A stretch of 64,000 bases of DNA from Escherichia coli (lineage in GTDB: Bacteria; Pseudomonadota; Gammaproteobacteria; Enterobacterales; Enterobacteriaceae), in assembly GCF_003790525.1 (NCBI RefSeq), contig NZ_CP033635.1; one strand, given 5' to 3'. Every line of letters starts with the position of its first letter. Within the stretch, counting starts at the first letter, position 1. The translations under genes and the position numbers were made by a program. The notes beneath the pieces are model-generated. The model had not been told where the DNA came from. It saw only the letters and a program-made list of their open reading frames with translations, and made no database searches. This document shows positions 37,099-53,240 of this stretch, one piece after another.

Positions 37099-38061
37099 TT
37101 ACGTCTCCTCTTGGGAGTGGATAATATGGGTGCCTGTTTCGCCACGCAGTGCCGCGGACAGGCATTCAGGCGTGGTGATAATCACTCTTTTACCTCCACG
37201 TTCCAGGAACTCCAGACTGGCAAGAATCTTCGGTAACATACTCCCAGGCGGGAAGTGACCCTCCTGCATGTAACGGGCCATCGTTAGGACATCCACTGTA
37301 TCCAGTGCATGCTGGTTGGGTTTCCCAAAATGAATACTCACTTTTTCCACGCCGGTGGTGATCACCAGAATGTCGGCGTGAATTTCGCGAGCCAGTAGCG
37401 CGCTAGAGAGATCTTTGTCGATAACCGCGTCCACGCTTTGGTAATCCCCTGCGTCAGTACGCACCACCGGAATGCCACCGCCGCCCGCGCCAATCACCAC
37501 AAAGCCTTGCTGGATCAGAGTCTTAATGGCAGGTGCTTCGACAATACGTTTCGGTTCCGGCGAGGCGACCACGCGGCGATAGCCCCGTCCGGCATCTTCA
37601 ACAAAACGCCAGTCAGGGTTTGCCTTTTGTAGTTCATCACGCTGGTTTTCACTAAAGAATGCACCGATGGGCTTGGTGGGATGGACAAACCCCGGATCGT
37701 TTTTATCCACTTCCACCTGAGTCACCACGGTGACGGCTTTTTTCTCGCCGTGAGGCGCCAGCCGGTTGTTCAGCGCCTGCTGGATCAGATAGCCAATGCC
37801 GCCTTGCGTATCCGCCACACAGTTCGCCAGCGGCGTTAAGGGTAGCCCTTCGCGCTCGTGGGCTATCTCCGCGCGGCGTAAATCCAGACCGACCTGCGGC
37901 CCGTTGCCGTGGGTCAGCACAATGTCGTAATCGGAAGCCAGCATTTCCAGAACCGTATCGGCGACGGCCTTCACCGCCTCCGCCTGATGCTCAATCGACT
38001 GGCTGGCGTTATCTTTGATAATGCTGTTGCCACCAATGGCAACGACCACAAGTTCTTTCAT
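37099..38061 (-). CDS. yahI: Carbamate kinase-like protein (YahI)
   Basis: Amino-acid-kinase fold (VVVAIGGNSI..., ...THGNGPQVG...); position after yahG and length match K-12 yahI as recalled. Confidence 0.75.
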   Translation of the reverse strand: MKELVVVAIGGNSIIKDNASQSIEHQAEAVKAVADTVLEMLASDYDIVLTHGNGPQVGLDLRRAEIAHEREGLPLTPLANCVADTQGGIGYLIQQALNNRLAPHGEKKAVTVVTQVEVDKNDPGFVHPTKPIGAFFSENQRDELQKANPDWRFVEDAGRGYRRVVASPEPKRIVEAPAIKTLIQQGFVVIGAGGGGIPVVRTDAGDYQSVDAVIDKDLSSALLAREIHADILVITTGVEKVSIHFGKPNQHALDTVDVLTMARYMQEGHFPPGSMLPKILASLEFLERGGKRVIITTPECLSAALRGETGTHIIHSQEET

Positions 38062-38087
38062 AGAATTATCTTCCGTTTGCAGGCTAT

Positions 38088-39638
38088 TCAGGTCGTTTTA
38101 GTCTCTTCCTGCTCAGACGCAGCCACTGTTTCACGGCTATCAATAACATGCTTGAGGGCAAACATAGCAAGCATCATCAGGTAGGCCACAACAAACACAA
38201 TCGAGCTGCCTTCCGCAAAGCCAACCGCTGGGGAGTGAATCACGCCAAACAGCGATAACAGTGCTCCAAAGGATGCAGCTATCGCCCCGCGCAGCGGCTT
38301 ATTCATAATGGCAAAGATCGCAATGCATCCCCACAGCATGCTGGCCAGCGGTGCACCGCTTCCCAGATGCATCAGTCCATCGTAATAGACGCCTTTGCTG
38401 TGCAACAGGTCGCTACCAAGTTTCTCAGCGGATGTTCCGGCTGCGCCCATCACGCTGTTAACGATGGTCAATGCCCAGTTGGCGACCCATGGGAACAGAC
38501 AGATGAAAATAACGGGAACCTCGACTTTAGGAGTTTCTCGCACCACCTGATTGGCGGTTACCACACCGATAAAAACCAGAATTGGCACTATAGCAGTCAT
38601 GGGAATAATGGCGAGCATAAACGCGCCCAACCCAAACAATGGCACCAGGAACATAGTGATGCCTGATGCGAGGGTATAGCAGATACTAGCGCCCATAGCT
38701 TTCCAGCCTGCATGCCCAACATATACGGTTACCGGGAACGGATTACCCAGCATGCAACCGAGCATGGAGGCAAAGCCGTTCGCCATCATGACCTTACGGG
38801 TGTTGTATTCATCACCAGCCGCGTGCGCACTTTCAATGTTCTCGAGGTCAAAAATGTAGTTAGCCAGGCCCAAAGGAACTGCAGAAGCCAGATATGGCAG
38901 AGCGTGCGGCAAACCTTGCAGGAAGCTCCTTACATGAATTTCCGGCGGGTTGAAGCCGAAGGAAGACATCGACGCTTTAATGTCTTCCGGGCTTTGTAAA
39001 CCGGATATCCACGCTAGGGACGTACCAGCAATCAGCAACAGCAAACCGGTAGGAATATGGGGAAAAATCGGCTTCTTACCGAACCAGTTAATGAAGATCA
39101 ATAACAGGACGATGAAAGAAACTGTCGGCGCTTCGAACGCTTGCAGCATCGGGTTCATTGCCAGCAGTAATAACCCCAGTCCGGACAGACAAGAAAGCAG
39201 CACTGTACGCGGGATCATCTTGCGGATAGTCTCACCCAGGAAGGAGCCACCGACCAGGATCAACGCTTCGACAAAGCACCACACCAATCCTATCTGAATA
39301 GCAAAGTTGGCATCTTTGGTTTGCTGATAAACCGGCATCAGCACCAGGAATGTCACGGTAAAGATTGAGGGTGCGCTCGGTCCAGACGGCAGCGCCGTTA
39401 CATCGCTACGACCGGTTTTCTTCACCATCTGTAGACCAAACCAGGAGTAGCAGACACTGGCCGCCAGCACTGCAAGACCAAAGGCAGGCGCAATGCGTCC
39501 ATAGACAATTTCAGTAGGGATTCCGACGACAAAAATTAGCAGACCCATCATTGTCAGCAGGTTAGTCAGATTGTTGGTCATCAGTCCAAAGTAAGCCGCC
39601 CAGTCACCACGTTTCCATTCTAGTTTTATGCTGTTCAT
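38088..39638 (-). CDS. Putative inner-membrane transporter (family not assigned) between yahG and yahI
   Basis: 516 aa, at least 12 hydrophobic segments; occupies the position of the tiny yahH in K-12 (from memory). Confidence 0.55.
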   Translation of the reverse strand: MNSIKLEWKRGDWAAYFGLMTNNLTNLLTMMGLLIFVVGIPTEIVYGRIAPAFGLAVLAASVCYSWFGLQMVKKTGRSDVTALPSGPSAPSIFTVTFLVLMPVYQQTKDANFAIQIGLVWCFVEALILVGGSFLGETIRKMIPRTVLLSCLSGLGLLLLAMNPMLQAFEAPTVSFIVLLLIFINWFGKKPIFPHIPTGLLLLIAGTSLAWISGLQSPEDIKASMSSFGFNPPEIHVRSFLQGLPHALPYLASAVPLGLANYIFDLENIESAHAAGDEYNTRKVMMANGFASMLGCMLGNPFPVTVYVGHAGWKAMGASICYTLASGITMFLVPLFGLGAFMLAIIPMTAIVPILVFIGVVTANQVVRETPKVEVPVIFICLFPWVANWALTIVNSVMGAAGTSAEKLGSDLLHSKGVYYDGLMHLGSGAPLASMLWGCIAIFAIMNKPLRGAIAASFGALLSLFGVIHSPAVGFAEGSSIVFVVAYLMMLAMFALKHVIDSRETVAASEQEETKTT

Positions 39639-39750
39639 GGAATCTCCTTAACAGGTTAAGCATCGTTTGCGATCATGGAGATCGCCCAGCCCTGAAGGTA
39701 AACAACGTTTTCCGCTACTGTGGGGCTAACTGCGTTAGCCCCGGTTATTG

Positions 39751-41169
39751 TTATTGGCAGTAGTGGTCACGCCAGTTGAGGATCGCCTTTTCAAAACAAG
39801 TGAACGGCGGGTGAACAATTCCTGCGCCGATCATGCCGATCCCTGCGTCTTTGTGCGCAATGGCTGTGTTAATTACCGGCAGAATGCCTGTACTGCCTAC
39901 ACGTGTAATATCGATAGCGGTCGGTACGCCCATAAAACCAAGCAGGGGAATGGTGACGTTGGGGTTTTCTCCGAGAGTGATTTCTCTCATTTTACGTGAG
40001 AAATCAATAGCTTCCTCAACTGTTCCGCCCACCAGTGACACAATAGCTGGTGCCGTCGCCATAGCGAAACCGCCAACGCCGTAGGTTTCGGTAATTGCAC
40101 TATCACCGATATCACGTCCGGAATCCTCTAGCTTATAGCCCGCAAACATCGGCCCAATCACCTGCTGCGCCGGACCGGTAAACCACTGGCCCGGCAAACC
40201 GCTAATACGAAGACCGAACTCAACACCATTGCGTGCCATCGTTGTCACCACGGTGCTGTATTCAATGCCGTGCGCAGCGTCCATTGCGGCTTTACACATT
40301 GCCATCCATGTTGGTCCTGAGAAGTAATCACTACTGAGGACAAACTCGAACACCTCACGCTGCTGCTCAACAGGGTAGCCAGTCTGAATAATCCACGGCG
40401 TCAGCGTCTGAATCAGCAGCGCCGTCCCGGCGTTGTTGCGGTTATGGCACTCATCGCCCATATGCAGCGCCTGCGCTAACATCAAGTGCAGATCGATTTC
40501 GCCCGCCAGCTTCATAGCATCGCGCAACATAGGTCCCAGTACATCTCGCATCCAGTTAAGACGCTCTATAACGCTCTGGTCGTTAGCGCCCATACGCAGG
40601 ATCTTTGCCATCTGCTCGCTCATATTGGTATATGCGCGGTTTCCATAGGTTTTGTTCTCGACGATGTGCATAAACATCGATGCAGACGTGACACCCGCCA
40701 TTGAGCCGACACAGTCATGTTCGTGGCACGGAGAGAAGATGATTTCACCTGAAGCAGCTAGTTCGGCGGCATCATCCAGATCTTTCGCCAGTCCTTCAAA
40801 TACCAGAGCCCCGGTTACTGCGCCCTTCATTGCGCCGCACATTTTTTCCCAGTGGATTGGCGGCCCGGCGTGAAGGATAGTGTTACGGGTCATACCCGGC
40901 ACGACGTTGATCGCCTGATCATAGCCAATTAGCACAGGATGCGACTGGATAATGCGTTCCAGCGCCAGCTGATTAGCAGCTGCAATTTTGTCTGCCAGTG
41001 GTGAAGCGGCAATGTCGTCCAGTGCCGTTACCACTTGTATGTTTCCTTGGCCTGGCGGTGTCCAGTCAAGTTGGGTTACCGGTACATTCTGCTTTTTCAT
41101 GTCATCGCTGAACATTTCGATACCGACATTAATAACGTTCAGCGGCTGATTAAACAGTGTCTGGCTCAT
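39751..41169 (-). CDS. yahG: DUF1116-family protein (YahG)
   Basis: 472 aa; adjacent to an FdrA-like gene with overlapping stop/start (41169). Confidence 0.7.
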   Translation of the reverse strand: MSQTLFNQPLNVINVGIEMFSDDMKKQNVPVTQLDWTPPGQGNIQVVTALDDIAASPLADKIAAANQLALERIIQSHPVLIGYDQAINVVPGMTRNTILHAGPPIHWEKMCGAMKGAVTGALVFEGLAKDLDDAAELAASGEIIFSPCHEHDCVGSMAGVTSASMFMHIVENKTYGNRAYTNMSEQMAKILRMGANDQSVIERLNWMRDVLGPMLRDAMKLAGEIDLHLMLAQALHMGDECHNRNNAGTALLIQTLTPWIIQTGYPVEQQREVFEFVLSSDYFSGPTWMAMCKAAMDAAHGIEYSTVVTTMARNGVEFGLRISGLPGQWFTGPAQQVIGPMFAGYKLEDSGRDIGDSAITETYGVGGFAMATAPAIVSLVGGTVEEAIDFSRKMREITLGENPNVTIPLLGFMGVPTAIDITRVGSTGILPVINTAIAHKDAGIGMIGAGIVHPPFTCFEKAILNWRDHYCQ

Positions 41170-42716
41170 CAGCCTTCCTCCCCTTTAAATATAAATTCAC
41201 GTGCCAGTAATCCGGTGTTGGTGCTACTGCTTGCCCAAATAACCCCGGCATCGGTCAACATCTGACACTGTTTTTTCAGCGACGGTGTATCAAGGTCGGT
41301 TCCCAGCACATAGCCGAGGATCTCAAGCGGGCGACCGTCTGCGGCAGCAATTTCTTTGGCTTCAACAATTGTATCCAGCATCACTCCAACCGGATCTTCA
41401 TGTGATCCAAATCCAAGAATGAAGTCCATCACGATCACGCCAACTTCAGGATCCTGTGCTTCCTGCAAGAGCCGGGTAATGCGATTGGTGGGATCGATCA
41501 TCGGATGTGGTTTGCCGTTGGTAAAATAATCATCGCCGAAATCGAGGAAGGTATGCGCCACGCTACGGTTGAGATCTGTAAGGCGGAACGCCGGATTCGG
41601 GTGAATATTGCTATACACATCCGAGAGTTTTTCCATGGCAGTAAACATCGCTTCATCGCATAACGTGCCACCACAGAACAGGCCACGGATATACTTTTGT
41701 TGTGGAGTCAGACGGGAGCGAACCTCTTCAATCAGCTGCCAGTTGAGCGGATGCAAATCCAGACTCTCTTTTTTCACACCAGTCAACAGTACCGCTTTCA
41801 AGGCAGCCTCTTTAGTACCGCGGGCAAACTGTAGGCCTTCTTCATCCGCAGGGGTGGACTCACGTCCGAGGAAACACACCACCACAGGCTTGTGACAGGT
41901 GCGCGCACGTTCCAGCACCTTACGGGCTACCGCTGGTGCAGGAGGTTTGGATATAAGCGTAATGATCTCAGTTTGTGGATCGGCCTCCAGCATGCTAATC
42001 GCGTCAAGCATCATCAGGCCGCCAATTTTTTCACTCATATCGCGTCCACCTGTCCCAATCAGCTGGGAAATCCCGCCGCCAAATTCGTGAATGCGTACGC
42101 TCAGCTCCTGGCTACCCGTACCGGAGGCACCAATGATTCCGATGTTGCCGCGACGCACTGCATTGCCAAAACACAACGCTGCGCCGTTAATGATGGCGGT
42201 TCCACAATCAGGCCCCATCATCAACAACCCTTTTTCATGTGCCAGATGCTTGAGTTCCAGCTCGTCCTCAAGAGAGACGTTGTCAGAAAACAGCATAACA
42301 TTGAGGTTATTTTGTAGTGCCTGACGAGCTTCACGAGCAGCAAACAGGCCATTGACAGAGATCACCGCCAGATTACTCTCTGGAGCATGCTTCTTCGCAC
42401 TGGCAATCGTGGCATAGCGTGCTTCGTGCTGGCCTCCCTGTTCTTTATGCGCAAACAGCTCATCAATCGCTATTAGCGTCCGCTCGTTCGCCTCCTCGCT
42501 GGTACCTTTAATGACAATCATCAGATCGCCACTTTTCGCCTCTTCCAGCTCAGGGGTCAGCAGACCGAGATTCTTCAGCACCCCCTTATTCATCTCTGTC
42601 GCCATAGCAACAAATGCCTGCTCAACTCCATCAAGCTTATTTGCGCGCGTGGAGATAGACATCAGTGAAACAGAATCAAAATACGTGTTTTTTTTTACAA
42701 CTATCCTGATTGACAT
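41169..42716 (-). CDS. yahF: FdrA-like protein, CoA-binding/succinyl-CoA-synthetase-like fold (YahF)
   Basis: 515 aa; glycine-rich nucleotide/CoA-binding motifs (GIIGASGTG, GGRD). Annotated start overlaps yahE by 41 bp; start may be internal. Confidence 0.75.
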   Translation of the reverse strand: MSIRIVVKKNTYFDSVSLMSISTRANKLDGVEQAFVAMATEMNKGVLKNLGLLTPELEEAKSGDLMIVIKGTSEEANERTLIAIDELFAHKEQGGQHEARYATIASAKKHAPESNLAVISVNGLFAAREARQALQNNLNVMLFSDNVSLEDELELKHLAHEKGLLMMGPDCGTAIINGAALCFGNAVRRGNIGIIGASGTGSQELSVRIHEFGGGISQLIGTGGRDMSEKIGGLMMLDAISMLEADPQTEIITLISKPPAPAVARKVLERARTCHKPVVVCFLGRESTPADEEGLQFARGTKEAALKAVLLTGVKKESLDLHPLNWQLIEEVRSRLTPQQKYIRGLFCGGTLCDEAMFTAMEKLSDVYSNIHPNPAFRLTDLNRSVAHTFLDFGDDYFTNGKPHPMIDPTNRITRLLQEAQDPEVGVIVMDFILGFGSHEDPVGVMLDTIVEAKEIAAADGRPLEILGYVLGTDLDTPSLKKQCQMLTDAGVIWASSSTNTGLLAREFIFKGEEG

Positions 42717-43524
42717 AATTACCTCCGGACCTGTGGCTCAGGGCGCAGGCATCCGCCATGCCATACAGCATGTCGCATCCAGAACTTGAGCCTATATTTT
42801 TTATGTCAGTAACATATTGCGTAGAAATGGGTTGTGGCTCAGTAATAAATTGGTTCAGTAGCCGTCCGACTCTTTCCCGATAACGCTGATTAAATGCTTC
42901 CTCTAACGTTATTTTGCTGAGAAGCGTTATGTTATTTCCTGCAAGTTGTAATGCTGCTAAGAAATCGTATCTATACTTCCTTAGTGGATGTCCTTGAATA
43001 AATAAAATAGTGCTTAAACCTACTAAATAATCATCCGATGATGGCGTCAGCCCTATTCCAAGACCAATTAACTGGTTGACTGCCGCAGTGATGTTTTCTC
43101 CTGTACACAACGCCTTCAGCAAATTTTTTCGGCGGTTGAGTAATTGGCGAGAAATTTCCTGATAAAATGGATTGTCACCCTGGTACAGAAATAATGTGTC
43201 GTTGCTTCTTAGTTGTTGGCGGATAAACTCTTCCCAATGCTGCCAGCCGACTTTGGCAAGGCTTGCTGAATCAGATGTCCACCGTGGTATTCGCCACATC
43301 TGACAACCGGTTATTTCTATCCATTTATCATTTCCAACAGTTATTCCAGACCCGCTAAAATTGACCTGTTCACCGGGGTGAAAAAGGTCTTCATAATGTG
43401 TCAGTGCTAAACGACAACTGTTAGGTGCGTTATCACAATCCTCACTCAGTAACGTCAGCAGTCGCTGCTGTTCAGGTATTAACAGATTTACCGCATGGGA
43501 AAAAACCTGTTCAACCTGGCCCAT
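42676..43524 (-). CDS. yahE: DUF2877-family protein (YahE)
   Basis: 282 aa; position between the ankyrin gene and the FdrA-like gene as in the K-12 yahD-yahE-yahF order. Confidence 0.65.
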   Translation of the reverse strand: MGQVEQVFSHAVNLLIPEQQRLLTLLSEDCDNAPNSCRLALTHYEDLFHPGEQVNFSGSGITVGNDKWIEITGCQMWRIPRWTSDSASLAKVGWQHWEEFIRQQLRSNDTLFLYQGDNPFYQEISRQLLNRRKNLLKALCTGENITAAVNQLIGLGIGLTPSSDDYLVGLSTILFIQGHPLRKYRYDFLAALQLAGNNITLLSKITLEEAFNQRYRERVGRLLNQFITEPQPISTQYVTDIKNIGSSSGCDMLYGMADACALSHRSGGNYVNQDSCKKKHVF

Positions 43525-43609
43525 TCCCCGAAAAGTGAGAAACGCGCAGTCTGCGGTTAGTGCCCGAAAAGATTGCCGTGATAATATAGCGATAATCGTG
43601 CTCCTGTTG

Positions 43610-44215
43610 TCAGGCTCCAGCCGAAATCAGCAACTCGGCAATTTTGTGGTAGCCTTTTTCTCGCGCCAGCTCCAGCGGGGTTTTACCGTATTTATCCGTC
43701 ATGTGCGGGTTTGCGCCATGCTCAAGCAACAGTTTGACGATCTCCTGCTGCTTTTCACCGCCGTCATTCAGCACGATGGCCTCTAGGAGCGGCGTCCAGC
43801 CAACAAAATTAGTATGGTTGACATTGATATCAGTACGCATCAGCAATTCACGTACAATCTCGACATGGCCTTTTTCGCAGGCAGGTGTAATACCAACACC
43901 GCCAAAACGGGTTAGGCAATTAAGGTCGGGGTTAGCCGGTAATACCGTACGCAACAGTGTTAAATCATTATTCAGGCAGCCAATCAGGAAGGGATTAAAA
44001 CAAGTTTGATCTTGTTTATTAATATCAGCACCTGCGGAAATCAATAAAGAAACGCAGTCATAATGTTTATTCAGACTGGCAATAATAATTGCAGTACGCC
44101 CCTCGCGGTTAGTCGCATTAATATCAACCTTTTTATCAAGGCATGATTTTAATCCATCGGAATTACCTTGTTCTGCCGCCAGCAGAAATTCTGTAATGAG
44201 TTCTTTATTGGACAT
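43610..44215 (-). CDS. yahD: Ankyrin-repeat protein (YahD)
   Basis: 201 aa with repeated ankyrin motifs (...GRTAIIIASLNKHYDCVSLLISAGADIN..., ...GWTPLLEA...LLLEHGANP...). Confidence 0.8.
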   Translation of the reverse strand: MSNKELITEFLLAAEQGNSDGLKSCLDKKVDINATNREGRTAIIIASLNKHYDCVSLLISAGADINKQDQTCFNPFLIGCLNNDLTLLRTVLPANPDLNCLTRFGGVGITPACEKGHVEIVRELLMRTDINVNHTNFVGWTPLLEAIVLNDGGEKQQEIVKLLLEHGANPHMTDKYGKTPLELAREKGYHKIAELLISAGA

Positions 44216-44602
44216 AATCGATCTCCTGCTCTTTTTAAGATTTTACAAATATAACAAGCCAAGAATAGCAACAGAATGCATAGAGCACCATCCATTTAAA
44301 ATTTACTCATCATTAGACCATGAATTATTGAAACAAAATTAACAATAATAAGAGAGTGTGATATAGTTCAATATTTCTATTATAGCTGGGGATATTTTAG
44401 CCATTAATCCGCAGTCATATAAATAAAGGTGGTCTGCAGCACGGATAGCTGCCTGTAATTAAAATTCAGATGTGTGATTTCCTTCAAATTAAATGTAAAT
44501 ACGGTGTTAATTTTTTCAAAACTGATTGTCGGTTATAAGAATTACAAATACATTCAACAATCATCATGTTGTGTATGTGTATTGTCGCCAGAGGAAAGAA
44601 AG

Positions 44603-45532
44603 ATGAATTCAATATTTACGGAAGAAAACTTACTGGCATTTACTATGGCTGCCCGCTATAGAAGTTTCAGCAAGGCGGCGAAGGAACTGGGCTTAACCAC
44701 ATCGGCAATTAGTTACACTATCAAGCGTATGGAAATGGGGCTTGACGTGGTGCTTTTTACCCGAACTACCCGTAGCATTGAGCTGACCGAGCCCGGGCAC
44801 TACCTTTTTTGCAAAGCAACTGACCTGCTCAACGATTACCACTCCATCATACGTAGAGTTGATGCCATCGCTCAGGGAATTAAATCCCGGGTGCGCATTT
44901 GTATTAATCAACTGTTGTATACCCCTCAGCATACAGCTCGGCTTCTGCAAGTGCTCAGGGAACACTTTCCAACCTGCCAGATAGCTATTACTACAGAGGT
45001 GTATAATGGCGTCTGGGATTCACTCATTAATAACCAGGCTGATATCGCCATTGGCGCGCCCGATACGTTACTGGACGGTGGTGGAATTGATTACATTGAA
45101 ATCGGCATGATTCGTTGGTTGTTCGCGATTTCTCCGGCTCATCCGCTGGCGTTTATTCCTGAGCCCATTTCTGAGAGTCAGTTACGTCTGTACCCGAACA
45201 TCATGGTGGAAGACACTGCAAACACTATAAACAAAAAAGTCGGCTGGCTGTTACACGGGCAAGAGTCGATTCTGGTTCCCGACTTTAATACTAAGCTTCA
45301 GTGCCAGATCCTGGGGGAGGGAATCGGTTTTCTGCCAGACTATATGGTGCGTGAAGCGATGGAAAAGTCATTGCTGGTGACACGGCAGATCCACAACCCA
45401 CGTCAGGATTCACGAATGCTGTTGGCAACCAGGCATTCGGCAAGCGGTCAAGTCACTCAGTGGATAAAAAGAGAATTTAGCTTACAAGGAATACTGACGG
45501 GGATTTATCAGGATTTGATGCATCGAGCGTGA
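44603..45532 (+). CDS. yahB: LysR-family transcriptional regulator (YahB), divergent from yahD
   Basis: 309 aa from the internal Met with RBS; N-terminal HTH (...FTMAARYRSFSKAAKELGLTTSAISYTIKRME...) and LysR substrate-binding domain. Confidence 0.75.
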   Translation: MNSIFTEENLLAFTMAARYRSFSKAAKELGLTTSAISYTIKRMEMGLDVVLFTRTTRSIELTEPGHYLFCKATDLLNDYHSIIRRVDAIAQGIKSRVRICINQLLYTPQHTARLLQVLREHFPTCQIAITTEVYNGVWDSLINNQADIAIGAPDTLLDGGGIDYIEIGMIRWLFAISPAHPLAFIPEPISESQLRLYPNIMVEDTANTINKKVGWLLHGQESILVPDFNTKLQCQILGEGIGFLPDYMVREAMEKSLLVTRQIHNPRQDSRMLLATRHSASGQVTQWIKREFSLQGILTGIYQDLMHRA

Positions 45533-45896: not shown

Positions 45897-46141
45897 AACA
45901 GGAAAGATAGGGGGAGGGACGCGTTTCCGGCACAACCAGCGTTACGTCACCCTGCATTGTTAGTTACGAAAAGCGTACCGGAAACGCGGAACATTCTTTT
46001 AACACATTACAGGCATTCGCACACATCTTTTTTCTTCTTTGTGCTCTGAATACTGCAGTGCTCAATTAATATTAGCCACGTTTTACAGTAAGAACGGTAT
46101 CTGTTCTCTGATTCTTCCGGCGTCAACCCACAGTGTAATTA

Positions 46142-46571
<430 letters not shown>

Positions 46572-46634
46572 TCAGTCTGGTAACTATCGTAAACCGTTCA
46601 GTGGGAAGGATATCAAGAGCACTGTAGCTTTTTA

Positions 46635-46796
<162 letters not shown>

Positions 46797-47519
46797 TCAC
46801 TGGATTCCCGGTATGAGTAACTTTTATTAACGATAAGCCAGGCTATTTGTGCATTGGTGTTGAGGTGAGCATATCACCTCTGTTCAGGTGACCAAATTCA
46901 GTGTGCCATTTCAGTCTGTAATGCGCTGTGTGAAAAAGCTCACTGACAGTCTGAGTATTTGTCTGCAAAGGATGGAGGCCCGTCGAGGGTTCCTGAAAAC
47001 CACTGGTGCGCTGGCGAATAAGCTGACAAGAATCATCTGGCGTGTTTTGAGCGATAGTATTGATTTTAATATGCAGAAGGCCGTTGTGATGAATTAAATA
47101 AAAACAGCAAGTTATAGAAAATATTTTTAACTGAGTTTACATACACTGATGAGATAACGGCTACCGCCCCTGTAACAGTCTGAAGTTGATCTGGGTAATC
47201 AAATACCGGTGTAGTGATTAGGAAACAGGGCCCGGATAACATCATGGCGCAGGTCATTGAACCTACTAACGACGCCGGATATATGGTCGCAAACCGCATC
47301 GAACCAGTACTTGCCTCACCTGGGACGTCCATATATGCTCAACAAAAGAGAGCGTTCAGAATTCTAGCCTCACATCATACCTGAAACCGCGTCCCGACCA
47401 TAGATGATTTTATCGCCGGTTTTTTATAACAATTGTTATATTTCTGTAACAATCTTTCCGTAGACTCACGTGCATAAAAATGATTCCCCTTGAAATCGAT
47501 TTTTTGAAAGGAAACCGCA

Positions 47520-49499
47520 ATGGGCAGACCGTTAAAAACTTTATTCAAACGTGAGCATAGTGAAGAAATCAGTAACCCGAGCGATAACCGCGCGTTTTCG
47601 CAGGTGGCGGAAGTTTATTTGTCACGCCGCCGTCTGTTACAGGCCGGCACGGTCGCCGGTGCCGCGGCAGCGTTCCCATTTCTGCTGAAACAGGAAAACG
47701 CGCTGGCGAAAGTGGTCTCCAAAGCAAGCGGTAACCTCGGCAAAGCGACGACGCTCGGTTTCACCAGCCTGCCGGTTTCCACGGAAGATACCGTTATCGT
47801 GCCGGAAGGATACATCGCGAAGCCCTTCTACAAATGGGGCGACGCCACCGGGATTGCCGGAAATCTGCCGGTTTTTAAAACCGACGGTAGCAACACCACG
47901 GAAGAACAGGCGGCGCAGGCCGGGATGCACCACGACGGCATGGCGTGGTTTAGCCTGCCGCAGGGCGGGAACAGCTCCGATCACGGCCTGCTTGCCATAA
48001 ACCATGAATACATCGATAACGGTCTACTGTTTAAAGATGGCGATGCCAACTGGAGCGCCGATAAAGCTCTTAAAGGCCAGAACGCGATGGGCGTGTCGGT
48101 CATTGAAGTAAAAAAAGTGCCCCTGGGCTGGGAAGTGGTGCGCCCGTCATCGTTCGCACGCCGTATCACCGTTAACACGCCGATGAAAATCACCGGTCCG
48201 GCGCTGCATAACCCACTGATGCAAACAGTTGACGATCCGAAAGGCGAAATCATTCTCGGCACCATGCAGAACTGTGCCAACGGATTTACGCCGTGGGGCA
48301 CCTATCTGACGTGTGAAGAGAACTGGTCCGATATTTTCGTAAAAAAAGCAGAGATGAACCCGCTGGAAAAACGTTACGGTATCAGCGGGAGCGACGACTC
48401 TTACCGCTGGAACGAAGTGGATAAAAGGTTCAGCGTCGACGCCACGCCGAACGAGCCGAACCGCTTCGGCTGGGTGGTGGAAATCGATCCATACGATCCG
48501 CATTCAGTGCCGCGCAAGCACACCGCGCTTGGTCGCATCAAACACGAAGGCGCGGCGGTGACAATTGCCCCGGATAACCGCGTTGTGGTCTATATGGGCG
48601 ATGACCAGAAATTCGAATACATATATAAATTTGTCTCGGAAGGAAAATTCAACCCGCAGGATCGCAAAGCCAACATGCACCTGCTGGAAAAAGGCACTCT
48701 GTACGTGGCGAAATTTAACGACGACGGCAAAGGCGAGTGGCTACCGCTGGTGTTCGGACAAAATGGGCTCGACGCCAGTAAAGGGTTTGAAAACCAGGGC
48801 GACCTGTTGATTAAAACCCGTCTGGCGGCAGACGCCGTGGGGGCCACTAAAATGGACCGCCCGGAGTGGATTGCGGTCGATCCATATCACGCCGGCAGCG
48901 TTTACTGCACGCTCACCAACAACAGCGATCGCGGTACGGAAGGAAAAGCGCCAGTGGATGCGGCCAACCCGCGCGCCAAAAACGTTTACGGCCACATCAT
49001 TCACTGGCTGGAGCATAACGGCGACCCGACCGCGCTGCAGTTTGCCTGGGATATTCTTGTGATGGGCGGTCGCACCGATACGGACAAACCGGAAACCAAA
49101 GGCAGCATGAAGGGTGCGGAATTCGGCAGCGCCGATGGCCTGAGCTTCGATCACCGCGGCGTGCTATGGATCCAGACCGACGTGTCGTCATCAACCATCA
49201 ATAGTAAAGATTACAAAGGCATGGGCAACAACCAGATGGTGGCGACGATCCCCGGTACCAATGAGTTCCGCCGCTTCCTGACCGGCCCGCGCGGCTGCGA
49301 AATCACCGGCATCGCGTTCACTCCGGATAACCGGACGCTGTTTATTAACATCCAGCACCCTGGCGAGCCAAGCGAAGGGCTTAGCGATCCGCAGCATCCG
49401 ACGGCAGTATCAAGCTGGCCTGACGGCGATAAGGCTGGTCGTCCGCGCTCCTCAACTGTCGTTATCGTAAAAGCCGACGGCGGCATAATCGGCACCTGA
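47520..49499 (+). CDS. PhoX-family (DUF839) phosphatase with twin-arginine signal peptide
   Basis: 659 aa; Tat motif SRRRLLQAGTVAGAAAA near the N-terminus; length and composition fit PhoX-type alkaline phosphatases. Confidence 0.65.
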   Translation: MGRPLKTLFKREHSEEISNPSDNRAFSQVAEVYLSRRRLLQAGTVAGAAAAFPFLLKQENALAKVVSKASGNLGKATTLGFTSLPVSTEDTVIVPEGYIAKPFYKWGDATGIAGNLPVFKTDGSNTTEEQAAQAGMHHDGMAWFSLPQGGNSSDHGLLAINHEYIDNGLLFKDGDANWSADKALKGQNAMGVSVIEVKKVPLGWEVVRPSSFARRITVNTPMKITGPALHNPLMQTVDDPKGEIILGTMQNCANGFTPWGTYLTCEENWSDIFVKKAEMNPLEKRYGISGSDDSYRWNEVDKRFSVDATPNEPNRFGWVVEIDPYDPHSVPRKHTALGRIKHEGAAVTIAPDNRVVVYMGDDQKFEYIYKFVSEGKFNPQDRKANMHLLEKGTLYVAKFNDDGKGEWLPLVFGQNGLDASKGFENQGDLLIKTRLAADAVGATKMDRPEWIAVDPYHAGSVYCTLTNNSDRGTEGKAPVDAANPRAKNVYGHIIHWLEHNGDPTALQFAWDILVMGGRTDTDKPETKGSMKGAEFGSADGLSFDHRGVLWIQTDVSSSTINSKDYKGMGNNQMVATIPGTNEFRRFLTGPRGCEITGIAFTPDNRTLFINIQHPGEPSEGLSDPQHPTAVSSWPDGDKAGRPRSSTVVIVKADGGIIGT

Positions 49500-49521
49500 T
49501 TCTGTTTCATCCGTCATTAAA

Positions 49522-49549
49522 AACGCAGGCGCGGTTAGCCTGTGTTTTT
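49522..49549 (+). terminator. Probable intrinsic terminator downstream of the PhoX-like gene
   Basis: ACGCAGGC-gcggtta-GCCTGTGT hairpin followed by TTTTTA. Confidence 0.5.
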
Positions 49550-49960
49550 ATGGTAAAGTCCTGTCAGTCCGCGCGCTGGCTTCCTTCAACGCTTTGTCGT
49601 AATTTTTGTCAGTCTGCTCGTAGTCTGGAATGCCCGGAATTCCTCAACGCTATGCCACTGTTCAGGCGCGGTGTGATGAGAGTGGCGTCGCTGGGTTATG
49701 CCTTTCCGGGCACGATTCTGGCGATTGGTTTTCTGACTCCCTAAATGACCGCTGGCTGTCGGAACTACTGGATTACAGGGGGTTACCTTTAATGTCTGTC
49801 GGTGATTTGCTGTACGATGCGATTTCAGGCAATAGCCATCGGCGCACTTGATGTCCGGCTGGGACGTATACCAGCGTCACTGGAACAAGCCTCACGTCTG
49901 CTGGGAGAAAATGGTACAGGAACTTTTGTTCGGGTTCACTTTCCTGTGTTGCTCTGGTGA
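49550..49960 (+). pseudogene. Degenerate ABC-transporter permease gene fragments (iron/thiamine-type), multiple frameshifts
   Basis: Three frames carry permease-like pieces (...MRVASLGYAFPGTILAIGFL...; ...SSALLVFTDAMKELPVTLL...); the last is fused to a transposase fragment. Confidence 0.45.
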
Positions 49961-50328
49961 GCAGTGCCCTGCTGGTTTTCACTGATGCGATGAAAGAACT
50001 GCCAGTAACACTTCTTTATTCCGAATCGCTCTTCCGGACGATTAAGTATTGTTCATGGTGGCCGGAGAATGGTTTTCGAACCATAGATGAAGCCAGAAGT
50101 TGGTTAAGCAAGTTCACGCAATGGTACAACCTGGAACACAAGCACAGCGGTATTAAGTATGTTACTCCGGATGAACGCCATCGCGGAATTGATGCACAAA
50201 TACTGGAAGCCAGAAAAAAAGTTTATCGCGAAGCTCGCAAGCGTCATCCTGAGCGCTGGAGCAAACAGTTGCGTGACTGGGAACTCATTCAGGCAGTTTA
50301 TCTGAATCCAGAAAAAGAAGCGGCATAA
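49957..50328 (+). pseudogene. Transposase C-terminal fragment (DDE integrase-core type) fused to the permease remnant
   Basis: ...FRTIDEARSWLSKFTQWYNLEHKHSGIKYVTPDERHRG... resembles the conserved C-terminus of integrase-core transposases. Confidence 0.45.
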
Positions 50329-50699
50329 CGTAATTTTATTACATCAGGCGACAACTACCTTGAAAAACGCCGGAAATAACTGACTCTTTACCCGCAGCCA
50401 TGCAGTGGGCTTTTTTATATCCCCCCTTCACAAACTCTGCTCACTGGTTATACCGGTTCACCTTTCCGGCTTGTAACCGCATGCACTCTGGACTGCCAGT
50501 CAGCTCATGTATGTCTCTTCCTTAATTGTGTTCATGAACAGGTGACACCTTATCTCCTGACAGAATAAACAAATTTTATTAATTCTGCTCTTCGCCAGCC
50601 CACTGCTACCATCTGTCGCGACGGGGCATGGCTGCCTGCATGGCATGCATTTGTTGTGTCTGTGCTGACTGAATACGATAAAAATTTCTGGTTAATGAC

Positions 50700-50725
50700 G
50701 ATCGATATCATCGATCGATTCGATC
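50700..50725. promoter_or_regulatory. Cluster of three GATC (Dam) sites in a cgatcgat direct-repeat array, 90-115 bp upstream of the OMP gene
   Basis: GATC at 50700, 50713 and 50722 within gacGATCgatatcatcGATCgattcGATCgatttt. Confidence 0.4.
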
Positions 50726-50815
50726 GATTTTATTCGATTGAGGCTATCGCATGGCGGGTTTTAAAATGCACTGAGTACTGCTTGCAGCAACGGAGCAATA
50801 ACGGAGATAATTGAA

Positions 50816-51556
50816 ATGAAAAAGGTTTTTGCTGTTTCAGTGGTGGCCGCAGCCTGTGTATTTGCAGCAAATGCAGGTGCTGAGGAAGGTAAAAGCGGTT
50901 TTTATCTGACCGGTAAAGCCGGTACCTCTGTGGTGTCACTTTCAGACCAGCGTTTCCTGTCAGGAGATGAGGAAGAAACGTCAAAGTATAAAGGCGGCGA
51001 TGACCATGATACGGTATTCAGTGGTGGTATCGCGGCTGGTTATGATTTTTATCCGCAGTTCAGTATTCCGGTTCGTACAGAACTGGAGTTTTACGCTCGT
51101 GGAAAAGCTGATTCGAAGTATAACGTAGATAAAGACAGTTGGTCAGGTGGTTACTGGCGTGATGACCTGAAGAATGAGGTGTCAGTCAACACACTAATGC
51201 TGAATGCGTACTATGACTTCCGGAATGACAGCGCATTCACACCTTGGATATCTGCAGGGATTGGCTACGCCAGAATTCACCAGAAAACAACCGGTATCAG
51301 TACCTGGGATTATGAGTACGGAAGCAGTGGTCGCGAATCGTTGTCACGTTCAGGCTCTGCTGACAACTTCGCATGGAGCCTTGGCGCGGGTGTCCGCTAT
51401 GACGTAACCCCGGACATCGCTCTGGACCTCAGCTATCGCTATCTTGATGCAGGTGACAGCAGTGTGAGTTACAAGGACGAGTGGGGCGATAAATATAAGT
51501 CAGAAGTTGATGTTAAAAGTCATGACATCATGCTTGGTATGACTTATAACTTCTGA
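50816..51556 (+). CDS. Small outer-membrane beta-barrel protein of the Hek/Tia/Hra (opacity-like adhesin/invasin) type
   Basis: 246 aa; signal peptide MKKVFAVSVVAAACVFAANA; alternating-hydrophobic beta strands; C-terminal ...GMTYNF; RBS GGAG upstream. Confidence 0.65.
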   Translation: MKKVFAVSVVAAACVFAANAGAEEGKSGFYLTGKAGTSVVSLSDQRFLSGDEEETSKYKGGDDHDTVFSGGIAAGYDFYPQFSIPVRTELEFYARGKADSKYNVDKDSWSGGYWRDDLKNEVSVNTLMLNAYYDFRNDSAFTPWISAGIGYARIHQKTTGISTWDYEYGSSGRESLSRSGSADNFAWSLGAGVRYDVTPDIALDLSYRYLDAGDSSVSYKDEWGDKYKSEVDVKSHDIMLGMTYNF

Positions 51557-51634
51557 CGACACTGCTCCTGAACGATAATTGCGTATATTCTGTAATTAAG
51601 ATAATTGCATATCTTCTGCAATTAAACAGAAACA

Positions 51635-51670
51635 CCCTGCAGTCTATTGCTGCAGGGTTGTCTGTTATCT
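51635..51670 (+). terminator. Intrinsic terminator after the OMP gene
   Basis: CCCTGCAG-tctattg-CTGCAGGG hairpin followed by a T-rich run (ttgtctgttatctgtttt). Confidence 0.6.
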
Positions 51671-51737
51671 GTTTTACAGATAATTTCTGATTTTTATTAT
51701 CCTGTTCTCTTCATAATAATGTTGTCGATATACTCCG

Positions 51738-53240
51738 ATGAATATCAGAAAACTGTTTTGTCCGGGCGACACACCCCGGATTTTATTGTTTTTATTCTTT
51801 TTTGTTATTTCTGTGATAATCACAATTGCATGCGGATACACTGAGAAGAATGCCACAGGAAATGTGCTGCTTCTGTTTCTCCTTCTGCTCCTTGCACACA
51901 GAAATACCCTCACATCCATTACAACGCTGTTATTTCTGTTCTGTTGTGCACTGTATGCGCCTGCGGGTATGACGTACGGTAAAATCAACAACAGTTTTAT
52001 TGTCGCGTTGCTGCAGACCACGGCTGATGAGGCTGCAGAGTTTACCGGGATGATTCCTGTTTATCATTTTCTGGTCAGTGCCGCGATTCTGGTATTCATG
52101 GTGATTTTCTGGCGGACACACCACCGCGGTCACCGTAACTGGCTGGCACTGCTGCTGTTCGTATTATGCTCTGTAAACAGCTGGCCGTTGCGGATGGTTA
52201 AAGGAACTGTTGTGGGGACAACTGACACATTGCGTGAAATGCAACATTATAAACAACTGAGTCAGCACGGGGCTGACAACTGGAAAATCCTGCCGGGAAC
52301 ACCGTTATATGACACAATTGTTATTGTCACTGGTGAGAGTGTGCGCAGGGATTATATGTCGGTATATGGCTATCCCGTGCCAACCACGCCGTGGCTGAAT
52401 ACGGCTCCCGGTTTATTTATTGACGGCTATACATCGGCAGCAGCCAGTACCGTACCTTCCCTGAGCCGGACACTGATTTATGACTATGAGCAGAACCCTG
52501 ACTCCGGCAACAACGTGGTGGCGCTGGCAGCAAAAGCAGGATACAGCACATGGTGGATATCCAATCAGGGAAAGCTGGGGGAGCATGATACACGCATCTC
52601 TGTTATTGCTTCTGATGCGGAGCATACCGTTTTCCTCAAGAAAGGCAGCTTTGCTTCCCGTAAAACGGATGACATGTTGTTGTTACAGGAAACAGAACGT
52701 GCACTGGCGGATAAATCCTCTCCGAAGGTGATATTCCTGCACATGATTGGCTCTCATCCGAATCCGTGTGACCGACTTAACTCCTGGCCGAATCATTACC
52801 TGGAGCAGTATCCCCGAAAGGTTGCCTGTTACCTCGCCAGCATCAGTAAACTGGATAACTTTCTCGGTCAGCTTGATGGTATCCTTCGCCGGCATTCCCG
52901 TCATTTCGTCATGCTTTACTTTTCTGACCATGGGCTGTCGGTCAGCGACAGTGCTAATCCTGTTCATCATGATGGTCATGTGCAGGGAGGCTACAGCGTT
53001 CCCCTGATTATTACCGCCAGTGATATCACGTCTCATCAGTCCGTCAGCAGAAAAATCAGTGCCCGTCATTTCGCAGGTATTTTTCAGTGGCTGACCGGCA
53101 TTCGTACTGAAAATATACCGCCATTCAATCCGCTGACAGACGAAGATAATGAACCCGTTATGGTTTTTAACGGAGAGAGGAATGTACTGGCAGACAGTCT
53201 GAAACCACAGCCTCTGATTCTTCCGGTCAAGGGAAAATAA
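51738..53240 (+). CDS. Phosphoethanolamine-transferase-like membrane protein (EptA/OpgE sulfatase superfamily)
   Basis: 500 aa; N-terminal TM helices plus C-terminal sulfatase-like domain with ...IVIVTGESVRRDYMSVYGY... motif. Confidence 0.7.
   Translation: MNIRKLFCPGDTPRILLFLFFFVISVIITIACGYTEKNATGNVLLLFLLLLLAHRNTLTSITTLLFLFCCALYAPAGMTYGKINNSFIVALLQTTADEAAEFTGMIPVYHFLVSAAILVFMVIFWRTHHRGHRNWLALLLFVLCSVNSWPLRMVKGTVVGTTDTLREMQHYKQLSQHGADNWKILPGTPLYDTIVIVTGESVRRDYMSVYGYPVPTTPWLNTAPGLFIDGYTSAAASTVPSLSRTLIYDYEQNPDSGNNVVALAAKAGYSTWWISNQGKLGEHDTRISVIASDAEHTVFLKKGSFASRKTDDMLLLQETERALADKSSPKVIFLHMIGSHPNPCDRLNSWPNHYLEQYPRKVACYLASISKLDNFLGQLDGILRRHSRHFVMLYFSDHGLSVSDSANPVHHDGHVQGGYSVPLIITASDITSHQSVSRKISARHFAGIFQWLTGIRTENIPPFNPLTDEDNEPVMVFNGERNVLADSLKPQPLILPVKGK

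Follow-up and report, generated by a model that had tools for sequence, protein, structure and literature searches.

An intact phoX gene lies in the selC-associated genomic island of Escherichia coli within the window analyzed here (the whole stretch of DNA, 64 kb, to which all positions refer). The best explanation as a whole, to which we assign a probability of about 0.88, is that phoX is a self-contained, horizontally acquired gene that would be induced by PhoB and whose product would be exported by the Tat pathway and add an Fe3+/Ca2+ phosphatase to the PhoA enzyme of the host. The gene carries a RefSeq name already (WP_000533458.1, 'PhoX family protein'), and the identical protein sequence occurs on ~1000 contigs, where it is named 'PhoX family phosphatase' or 'secreted PhoX family phosphatase'. 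The features on which this reading is built are collected in Table 1.

Table 1. Positions of phoX, its regulatory and export signals, and the mobile elements around it.
Feature	Position	Strand	Evidence
IS3-family transposase remnant, left of the phoX cassette	46218..46849	-	RefSeq annotation of the identical TUM9803 region
6.4-kb module travelling between islands	46861..53226		99.1% identity over 6377 bp to the Ecol_AZ159 island
Pho-box-like PhoB site (candidate), -35 position	47433..47450	+	best consensus match, cross-genus footprint
-10-like hexamer TAGACT	47461..47466	+	read from the sequence; T72, A73 and T77 conserved in the upstream alignment
Shine-Dalgarno AGGAA, 6 nt before ATG	47509..47513	+	G121, G122 and A123 invariant in the upstream alignment
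phoX coding sequence, 659 aa, intact	47520..49499	+	ORF list, Pfam, PDB, Cronobacter alignment, RefSeq
Tat signal peptide, residues 1-63	47520..47708	+	TIGR01409, Pfam TAT_signal, orthologue conservation
Intrinsic terminator hairpin, A-tract/stem/U-tract, bidirectional type	~49514..49553	+	fold, Cronobacter conservation
FbpB/PhnU-like two-domain ABC permease fragment, outside the phoX unit	~49596..50043	+	frameshifted, both termini missing
IS3-family transposase C-terminal (integrase core) fragment, cutting the permease on its 3' side	49957..50328	+	NCBIfam, RefSeq
Island tyrosine integrase	55054..56238	-	ORF list, RefSeq annotation
tRNA-Sec selC, attachment end of the island	56538..56632	-	ARAGORN, RefSeq annotation

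Results

A full-length member of the PhoX family

The ORF list contains an ATG-initiated frame that coincides exactly with the coding sequence in Table 1. Its start codon is backed by conservation, given that AGGAA and ATG are kept across 17 enterobacterial upstream regions, while the DNA around them is not. A preliminary description of this DNA, made from the letters alone, had proposed that the product belongs to the PhoX/DUF839 family, and the Pfam search bears this out: residues 80-615 align with model positions 2-515 of 515 of PF05787 (PhoX), that is, end to end (553.7 bits; E=7.4e-166). PF05787 was formerly known as DUF839 and corresponds to COG3211. In a search of solved structures, residues 2-585 of Pseudomonas fluorescens PhoX (3ZWU) matched residues 70-658 of the query with short gaps only (E=1.7e-167) and with 47% identity across the mature domain. 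An NCBIfam search with the full-length protein gave no match; as this library seems to be without a matching PhoX model, the null result is not evidence against membership. The solved structure at 47% identity and the full-length Pfam match together settle the family, and the protein is a PhoX family member over its full mature length.

Conservation of the active site was judged by the cysteine ligand and by general invariance across 82 sequences. The alignment comprised the E. coli protein, 80 orthologues from other species (49-81% identical to the E. coli protein), and the 3ZWU chain. It contains 152 invariant columns, among them C252 in the motif QNCANG, which corresponds to chain position 179 of 3ZWU, and E343 in the motif KHE, which corresponds to position 273. 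TPWGTYLTCEEN, MDRPEWI, and IQHPGE form further invariant blocks. Cys179 of the P. fluorescens enzyme is reportedly its Fe3+-binding cysteine (Yong et al. 2014, Science 345:1170).

One Fe3+ of PhoX is held by a cysteine thiolate; a second Fe3+, three Ca2+, and a mu3-oxo group complete the cofactor (PMC4223295). The earlier characterization of PhoX enzymes as Ca2+-dependent needs correction, since simple Ca2+ dependence does not describe a cofactor that also contains iron. PhoX has been reported to be an exclusive phosphomonoesterase of general range (PMC4223295), and characterized PhoX enzymes vary in the substrates they accept (PMC5768637). From its similarity to these enzymes, the E. coli product is most likely a periplasmic or secreted PhoX-family phosphomonoesterase. 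Our search of the literature on PhoX in E. coli islands and in Cronobacter found no experimental work on the protein of either organism.

A conserved twin-arginine signal peptide

The N-terminus had been read as a twin-arginine signal on account of the string SRRRLLQAG (residues 35-43, nt 47622-47648), and prediction tools and conservation both agree. TIGR01409 matches residues 34-52 with 21.4 bits, above its curated cut-off of 16.7, when the N-terminal 75 residues are searched; the match to Pfam TAT_signal is weak (E=0.016). The layout is that of a Tat signal, with a long conserved n-region, the motif S35-R-R-R-L-L-Q of the S/T-R-R-x-F-L-K type, an uncharged and weakly hydrophobic h-region rich in alanine and glycine that spans approximately residues 39-56 (L39-L56), a lysine at position 57, and A61-L-A63. 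Both arginines, R36 and R37, are kept in 100% of 81 orthologues, S35 in 96%, and L40 in 91%, and the two alanines of the AxA motif are found in 74% (A61) and 85% (A63). Signal peptidase I is likely to cut after A61-L-A63, as judged by the AxA rule. The n-region also holds a strongly conserved motif, N19-x-S-x-N23-x-x-F-S27-x-V, located 8-17 residues ahead of the arginine pair. Tat export has been shown for PhoX proteins and explained by the insertion of iron in the cytoplasm (PMC4223295, PMC3197622), and the signal peptide suggests that E. coli PhoX depends on the same pathway.

A candidate Pho box and a terminator of its own

The top-scoring site in the 200 bp upstream of phoX, TTGTTATATTTCTGTAAC, matches the E. 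coli Pho box consensus CTGTCATAWAWCTGTCAY at 14 of 18 positions. Allowing three or fewer mismatches, we found no Pho box in the 64-kb window, and sites with four mismatches occur six times over both strands, which corresponds to one site in about 21 kb of single strand. At this frequency, the Pho-box-like site alone is only suggestive, and we accepted it after inspection of the cross-genus footprint. Scanning of 38 enterobacterial orthologues gave, in almost every case, a best site that conforms to nTGTTATAAAwnTGTAAC and precedes the start codon by 66-84 nt on the same strand. When 16-17 of the enterobacterial orthologues were aligned, GTTAT-N6-TGTAA was the sole invariant upstream block besides positions of the -10 element and the ribosome-binding site. 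The site is identical in Cronobacter, and near-canonical boxes of the CTGTCAT type are located upstream of several orthologues from Neisseriaceae, Pasteurellaceae, and Wohlfahrtiimonas.

In promoters of the Pho regulon, an 18-bp Pho box composed of two 7-bp repeats, 11 bp apart, replaces the -35 element and is placed ~10 bp before the -10 element. The region upstream of phoX fits this classical arrangement, with the Pho-box-like site in the position of the -35 element, followed after 10 bp by the hexamer TAGACT. A generic sigma-70 scan reported no -35/-10 pair upstream of phoX, which is expected given that the Pho box stands in for the -35 element. The conserved site and its placement point to control of phoX by PhoB.

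At the other end of the gene, the claim that phoX has its own terminator holds: a U-tract hairpin lies past the stop codon (dG -19.2 kcal/mol; z = -3.3 vs shuffles), and a matching hairpin is present 3' of Cronobacter phoX. A pattern scan placed the hairpin of the E. coli gene on the minus strand.

The transferred unit and its Cronobacter relatives

The 90%-identity cluster of E. coli PhoX takes in PhoX from five Cronobacter species. That of C. sakazakii is 96% identical, likewise has 659 aa, and aligns with 0 gaps. At the DNA level, C. malonaticus and the E. coli locus share 92% identity over 47430-49549 and nowhere else in 46001-51000. The homology begins 3 bp before the Pho-box-like site and stops 50 bp past the stop codon, just beyond the terminator; in Cronobacter, the point at which it starts comes directly after the terminator of the gene before phoX. 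These limits define the transferred unit as exactly promoter, gene, and terminator. The G+C content of phoX is 56% compared to 48% for the window. The E. coli and Cronobacter genes are separated by a dS of 0.34 and a dN/dS of 0.06, a low ratio that mostly reflects the history of phoX before its transfer and is no proof of selection in E. coli.

While the protein, the Pho box, and the terminator hairpin are shared between the two genera, the genomic context is not. Cronobacter phoX is chromosomal and sits between a cluster for inositol catabolism with an MFS transporter and a methionine-type ABC transporter, and on its downstream side are found a 340-aa protein of unknown family and the methionine-type transporter. 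The E. coli gene, in contrast, is represented by the promoter-gene-terminator unit only, placed between IS3 remnants in tRNA-associated islands.

phoX travels within a mobile module

The placement of phoX in an accessory region near selC, as put forward in the preliminary description, is correct. The order of selC and the integrase gene, with the core genes yicJ and yicI beyond selC on the far side, places phoX in the selC island; K-12 MG1655 carries only yicT and setC after selC and no island. RefSeq annotation was transferred from the identical region of TUM9803 (offset 27999), which labels the IS3 fragment downstream of phoX as 'integrase core domain-containing protein'. In NCBIfam, this fragment matches transpos_IS3 at profile positions 316-368 of 369 (E=5e-11).

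phoX is part of a 6.4-kb module that contains an IS remnant, phoX, the permease fragment, the IS3 fragment, a gene for an Adr/OmpW-like outer membrane protein, and a gene for a CptA-like phosphoethanolamine transferase. In Ecol_AZ159, the module occupies a tRNA-Phe island (pheV-type, on the yqgA-speC side). Other selC islands show homology only from position 50797 of the window on and are without phoX.

Full-length phoX is present in 98 of 5426 complete E. coli genomes (1.8%). Among the matches listed, full-length chromosomal copies are 99.3-99.9% identical, and many carriers come from chickens or other poultry or from human patients. One more diverged full-length copy (94% identical) is located on a 71-kb plasmid beside IS3 elements. 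On plasmid pJNE25-005_2, phoX adjoins a gene annotated as 'esterase-like activity of phytase', which is also found in the tRNA-Phe island. E. coli B strains and many plasmids carry a 112-bp relic of phoX.

The neighboring permease fragment is rearrangement debris

A decayed ABC permease had been noted after phoX and proposed to be what is left of an associated uptake system. The fragment itself is real: its motifs are split over two reading frames, for example RLGRIPASLEQASRLLGENGTGTFVRVHFPVLL and ALLVFTDAMKELPVTLLY, and both of its ends are missing. NCBIfam returned weak matches to PhnU2, ModB, and CysW permeases, and in RefSeq it is annotated as a pseudogene, 'iron ABC transporter permease'. 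It shares 69% DNA identity with nt ~1085-1531 of an intact permease gene of 1689 nt (562 aa), which occurs in a few E. coli genomes within an operon for binding protein, permease, and ATPase.

The proposed link to PhoX was rejected. The fragment lies outside the homology with Cronobacter, which ends at 49549, and the neighbors of phoX in Cronobacter are different. Moreover, when the reconstructed permease peptide was used in a tblastn search of 82 phoX loci, it had no relative within 8 kb on either side of the gene at any of the 80 loci from other species, and matches were confined to the two island loci of E. coli. By comparison of these loci, the fragment is debris of rearrangements and no partner of PhoX.

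Discussion

The closest enzyme of solved structure, P. fluorescens PhoX (PDB 3ZWU, 4A9V, 4A9X, 4ALF, 4AMF), shares with the E. coli protein the family, the length of the mature domain, and the 47% identity from end to end, and the equivalents of Cys179 and position 273 are conserved together with about 150 other positions. Tat export and the Fe3+/Ca2+ cofactor are features of the P. fluorescens enzyme (PMC4223295) that are predicted for the E. coli protein. The two proteins differ at approximately half of their residues, and the P. fluorescens chain has seven cysteines where the E. coli protein has four.

PhoX of Campylobacter jejuni is controlled by PhosS/PhosR, not PhoBR, and is the sole alkaline phosphatase of that organism. 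It can be likened to the E. coli protein by its description, in a gut pathogen, as a PhoX-family phosphatase that is translocated by Tat and linked to phosphate starvation (PMC3197622). In E. coli itself, the job predicted for PhoX is already done by PhoA, a Pho-regulon periplasmic phosphomonoesterase, which nevertheless has an unrelated fold and belongs to the core genome. PhoA is exported by Sec. Its active site contains two Zn2+ and one Mg2+ and operates through a phosphoserine intermediate (PMC4223295).

How acquired phoX might function in E. coli can be outlined from these comparisons. Under phosphate starvation, phosphorylated PhoB would bind the Pho box that stands in for the -35 element and activate transcription. 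The PhoX precursor would fold and take up iron in the cytoplasm, TatABC would export the folded precursor by means of the S-R-R-R-L-L signal, and signal peptidase I would remove the signal peptide at the AxA motif. The mature protein, a six-bladed propeller whose cofactor would hold two Fe3+, three Ca2+, and an oxo group, would hydrolyze organic phosphate monoesters either in the periplasm or extracellularly, and the released phosphate would be taken up by the Pst system of the host. PhoX could, in this manner, serve as a zinc-independent supplement to PhoA, and might thereby confer a fitness benefit on its carriers.

The rivals to this explanation are all minor. A protein with the PhoX fold could have a role narrower than, or different from, general phosphate scavenging, with nucleotides, lipid or LPS phosphates, or phospho-compounds of the host as possible substrates, and work in concert with the neighboring envelope or phytase-like genes. 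The Adr/OmpW-like and CptA-like genes in the shared module, the phytase-like esterase gene next to phoX on pJNE25-005_2 and in the tRNA-Phe island, and the substrate range varying among characterized family members (PMC5768637) are all in keeping with such specialization. However, other strains have the genes for the outer membrane protein and the transferase at selC but lack phoX there (the homology starting at 50797), and Cronobacter phoX is adjoined by neither of these genes nor by a phytase-like one. In addition, the conservation of the Pho box argues for control by phosphate starvation, and PhoX enzymes are general phosphomonoesterases (PMC4223295). We consider a specialized role improbable, and it is yet more doubtful that phoX is an intact but idle passenger of IS3 rearrangements, poorly expressed or matured in E. 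coli. In favor of this rival, phoX is flanked by decayed IS3 elements and by the dead permease fragment, its carriers make up only 1.8% of complete genomes, copies are seen to decay (the 112-bp relic of E. coli B strains and of many plasmids), and the upstream junction is only 3 bp from the Pho box. The last point is countered by the Cronobacter locus: with the terminator of the preceding gene directly upstream in Cronobacter, the complete Cronobacter promoter region has been kept. The frame is also intact in 98 genomes and at no fewer than two island sites (at least two), the chromosomal copies listed being 99.3-99.9% identical, and a diverged copy persists on a plasmid. PhoBR and TatABC, on which expression and maturation would depend, are core functions of E. 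coli.

Export by Sec, or a cytoplasmic PhoX with an arginine pair arising by chance, has a next to negligible probability. The n-region is unusually long, with the pair at 36-37, and the Pfam TAT_signal match reaches only E=0.016; TIGR01409, however, scores above its cut-off, and the pair is kept without exception in orthologues that are as little as 49% and at most 81% identical to E. coli PhoX. The weakly hydrophobic h-region rich in alanine and glycine and the lysine ahead of the AxA motif likewise argue for Tat, and Tat dependence has been published for PhoX homologues (PMC3197622, PMC4223295). We therefore retain the reading of phoX as an acquired gene for a PhoB-induced, Tat-exported phosphatase that would add to PhoA.

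A more far-reaching proposal joins two separate ideas, namely that the 2.1-kb phoX module is carried by IS3 elements and owes its spread to a benefit in zinc-restricted niches, and that the n-region motif marks a step preceding Tat export. We regard the two jointly as a long shot. If true, the module would have been mobilized recently from a Cronobacter-like donor and would have reached plasmids as well as islands at selC and tRNA-Phe in avian and in extra-intestinal E. coli, and its spread would have been favored because a zinc-independent iron/calcium phosphatase helps in host niches where zinc is restricted. Separately, the motif N19-x-S-x-N23-x-x-F-S27-x-V would mark an undescribed proofreading or iron-loading step before export.

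phoX as found here is an ordinary, already annotated accessory gene of a family with a solved structure and a described mechanism; its importance beyond correct annotation is small, and it opens no new question. For the biology of E. coli, it means that a minority of strains (the 98 carriers among complete genomes) possess what appears to be a second alkaline phosphatase, structurally unrelated to PhoA. This enzyme most likely relies on iron and calcium rather than zinc and would leave the cytoplasm in folded form via Tat. Its presence could disturb phoA-based reporter or phenotype assays in carrier strains. For the PhoX family, the E. coli locus offers a tidy case of a gene that has crossed genera with exactly its own regulatory signals.

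A conserved motif ahead of the twin-arginine pair

The n-region of the PhoX signal peptide comprises 35 residues, which is unusually long, and includes a conserved motif that spans the Enterobacteriaceae, Neisseriaceae, Pasteurellaceae and others. Among the 81 orthologues aligned, conservation reaches 99% at N19 and S27, 96% at N23, 86% at V29, 81% at S21 and 80% at F26. Given that n-regions of signal peptides are normally not conserved, the motif might constitute a site for a chaperone or for proofreading.

The cassette junction and the surrounding island

The perfect 14-bp palindrome ATAACAATTGTTAT straddles the joint between island DNA and the Cronobacter-like phoX cassette and extends into the left half of the Pho box-like site. 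Cronobacter lacks its left arm, so the palindrome probably arose by chance where the two sequences were joined.

Overall, the selC island is a mosaic, either half of which is matched over >80% of its length by only one complete genome. It carries phoX together with a 1274-aa ORF annotated as an S6-family peptidase, as well as genes for an Adr/OmpW-like protein and a CptA-like protein, the latter two of which occur in selC islands with phoX and in ones without it. To the left of the IS3-family remnants, the island also holds a set of clustered genes similar to those for the oxamate branch of the allantoin degradation pathway.

Coordinates of the features discussed (positions in the window; L-numbers denote comparison loci with their own coordinates)
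Feature	Position	Description
S6-family peptidase	21663-25487	SPATE-type autotransporter protease, by annotation of matching genomes
Oxamate-branch-like cluster	37099-45532	carbamate kinase, xanthine permease, YlbE, FdrA, AllH-like protein, ankyrin-repeat protein, AllS/PunR-like LysR regulator
Palindrome	47426-47439	
n-region motif	47568-47606	residues 17-29
phoX piece kept as relic	48382-48493	internal, 112 bp
Adr/OmpW-like protein	within 50816-53240	outer membrane beta-barrel protein, 246 aa
CptA-like protein	within 50816-53240	phosphoethanolamine transferase, 500 aa; EptA and MCR models only distantly related
phoX relic	L088:4001-4112	BL21(DE3) chromosome
phoX relic	L089:4001-4112	IncFII plasmid
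Plasmid phoX locus	L087:7085-10683	pJNE25-005_2
tRNA-Phe island	L001:6125-7468	listed with the phytase-like gene and ugpB

Other occurrences of phoX in E. coli

An internal piece of phoX is kept elsewhere in E. coli as a relic of 90-93% identity, which carries the annotation of a partial 'alkaline phosphatase'. Its neighbour is an autotransporter gene in ~370 E. coli records, among which are B/BL21 strains and many IncF plasmids; this suggests a separate, older acquisition of phoX that has since decayed.

Full-length phoX (94% DNA identity) is present on the 71-kb E. coli plasmid pJNE25-005_2, where it adjoins a gene annotated as 'esterase-like activity of phytase family' and IS3 transposase genes flank both sides. 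The same phytase-like gene, along with an orphan ugpB, is found on the phoX-bearing tRNA-Phe island of strain Ecol_AZ159. Together, phoX, the phytase-like gene and ugpB could form a loose set of phosphorus-scavenging genes.
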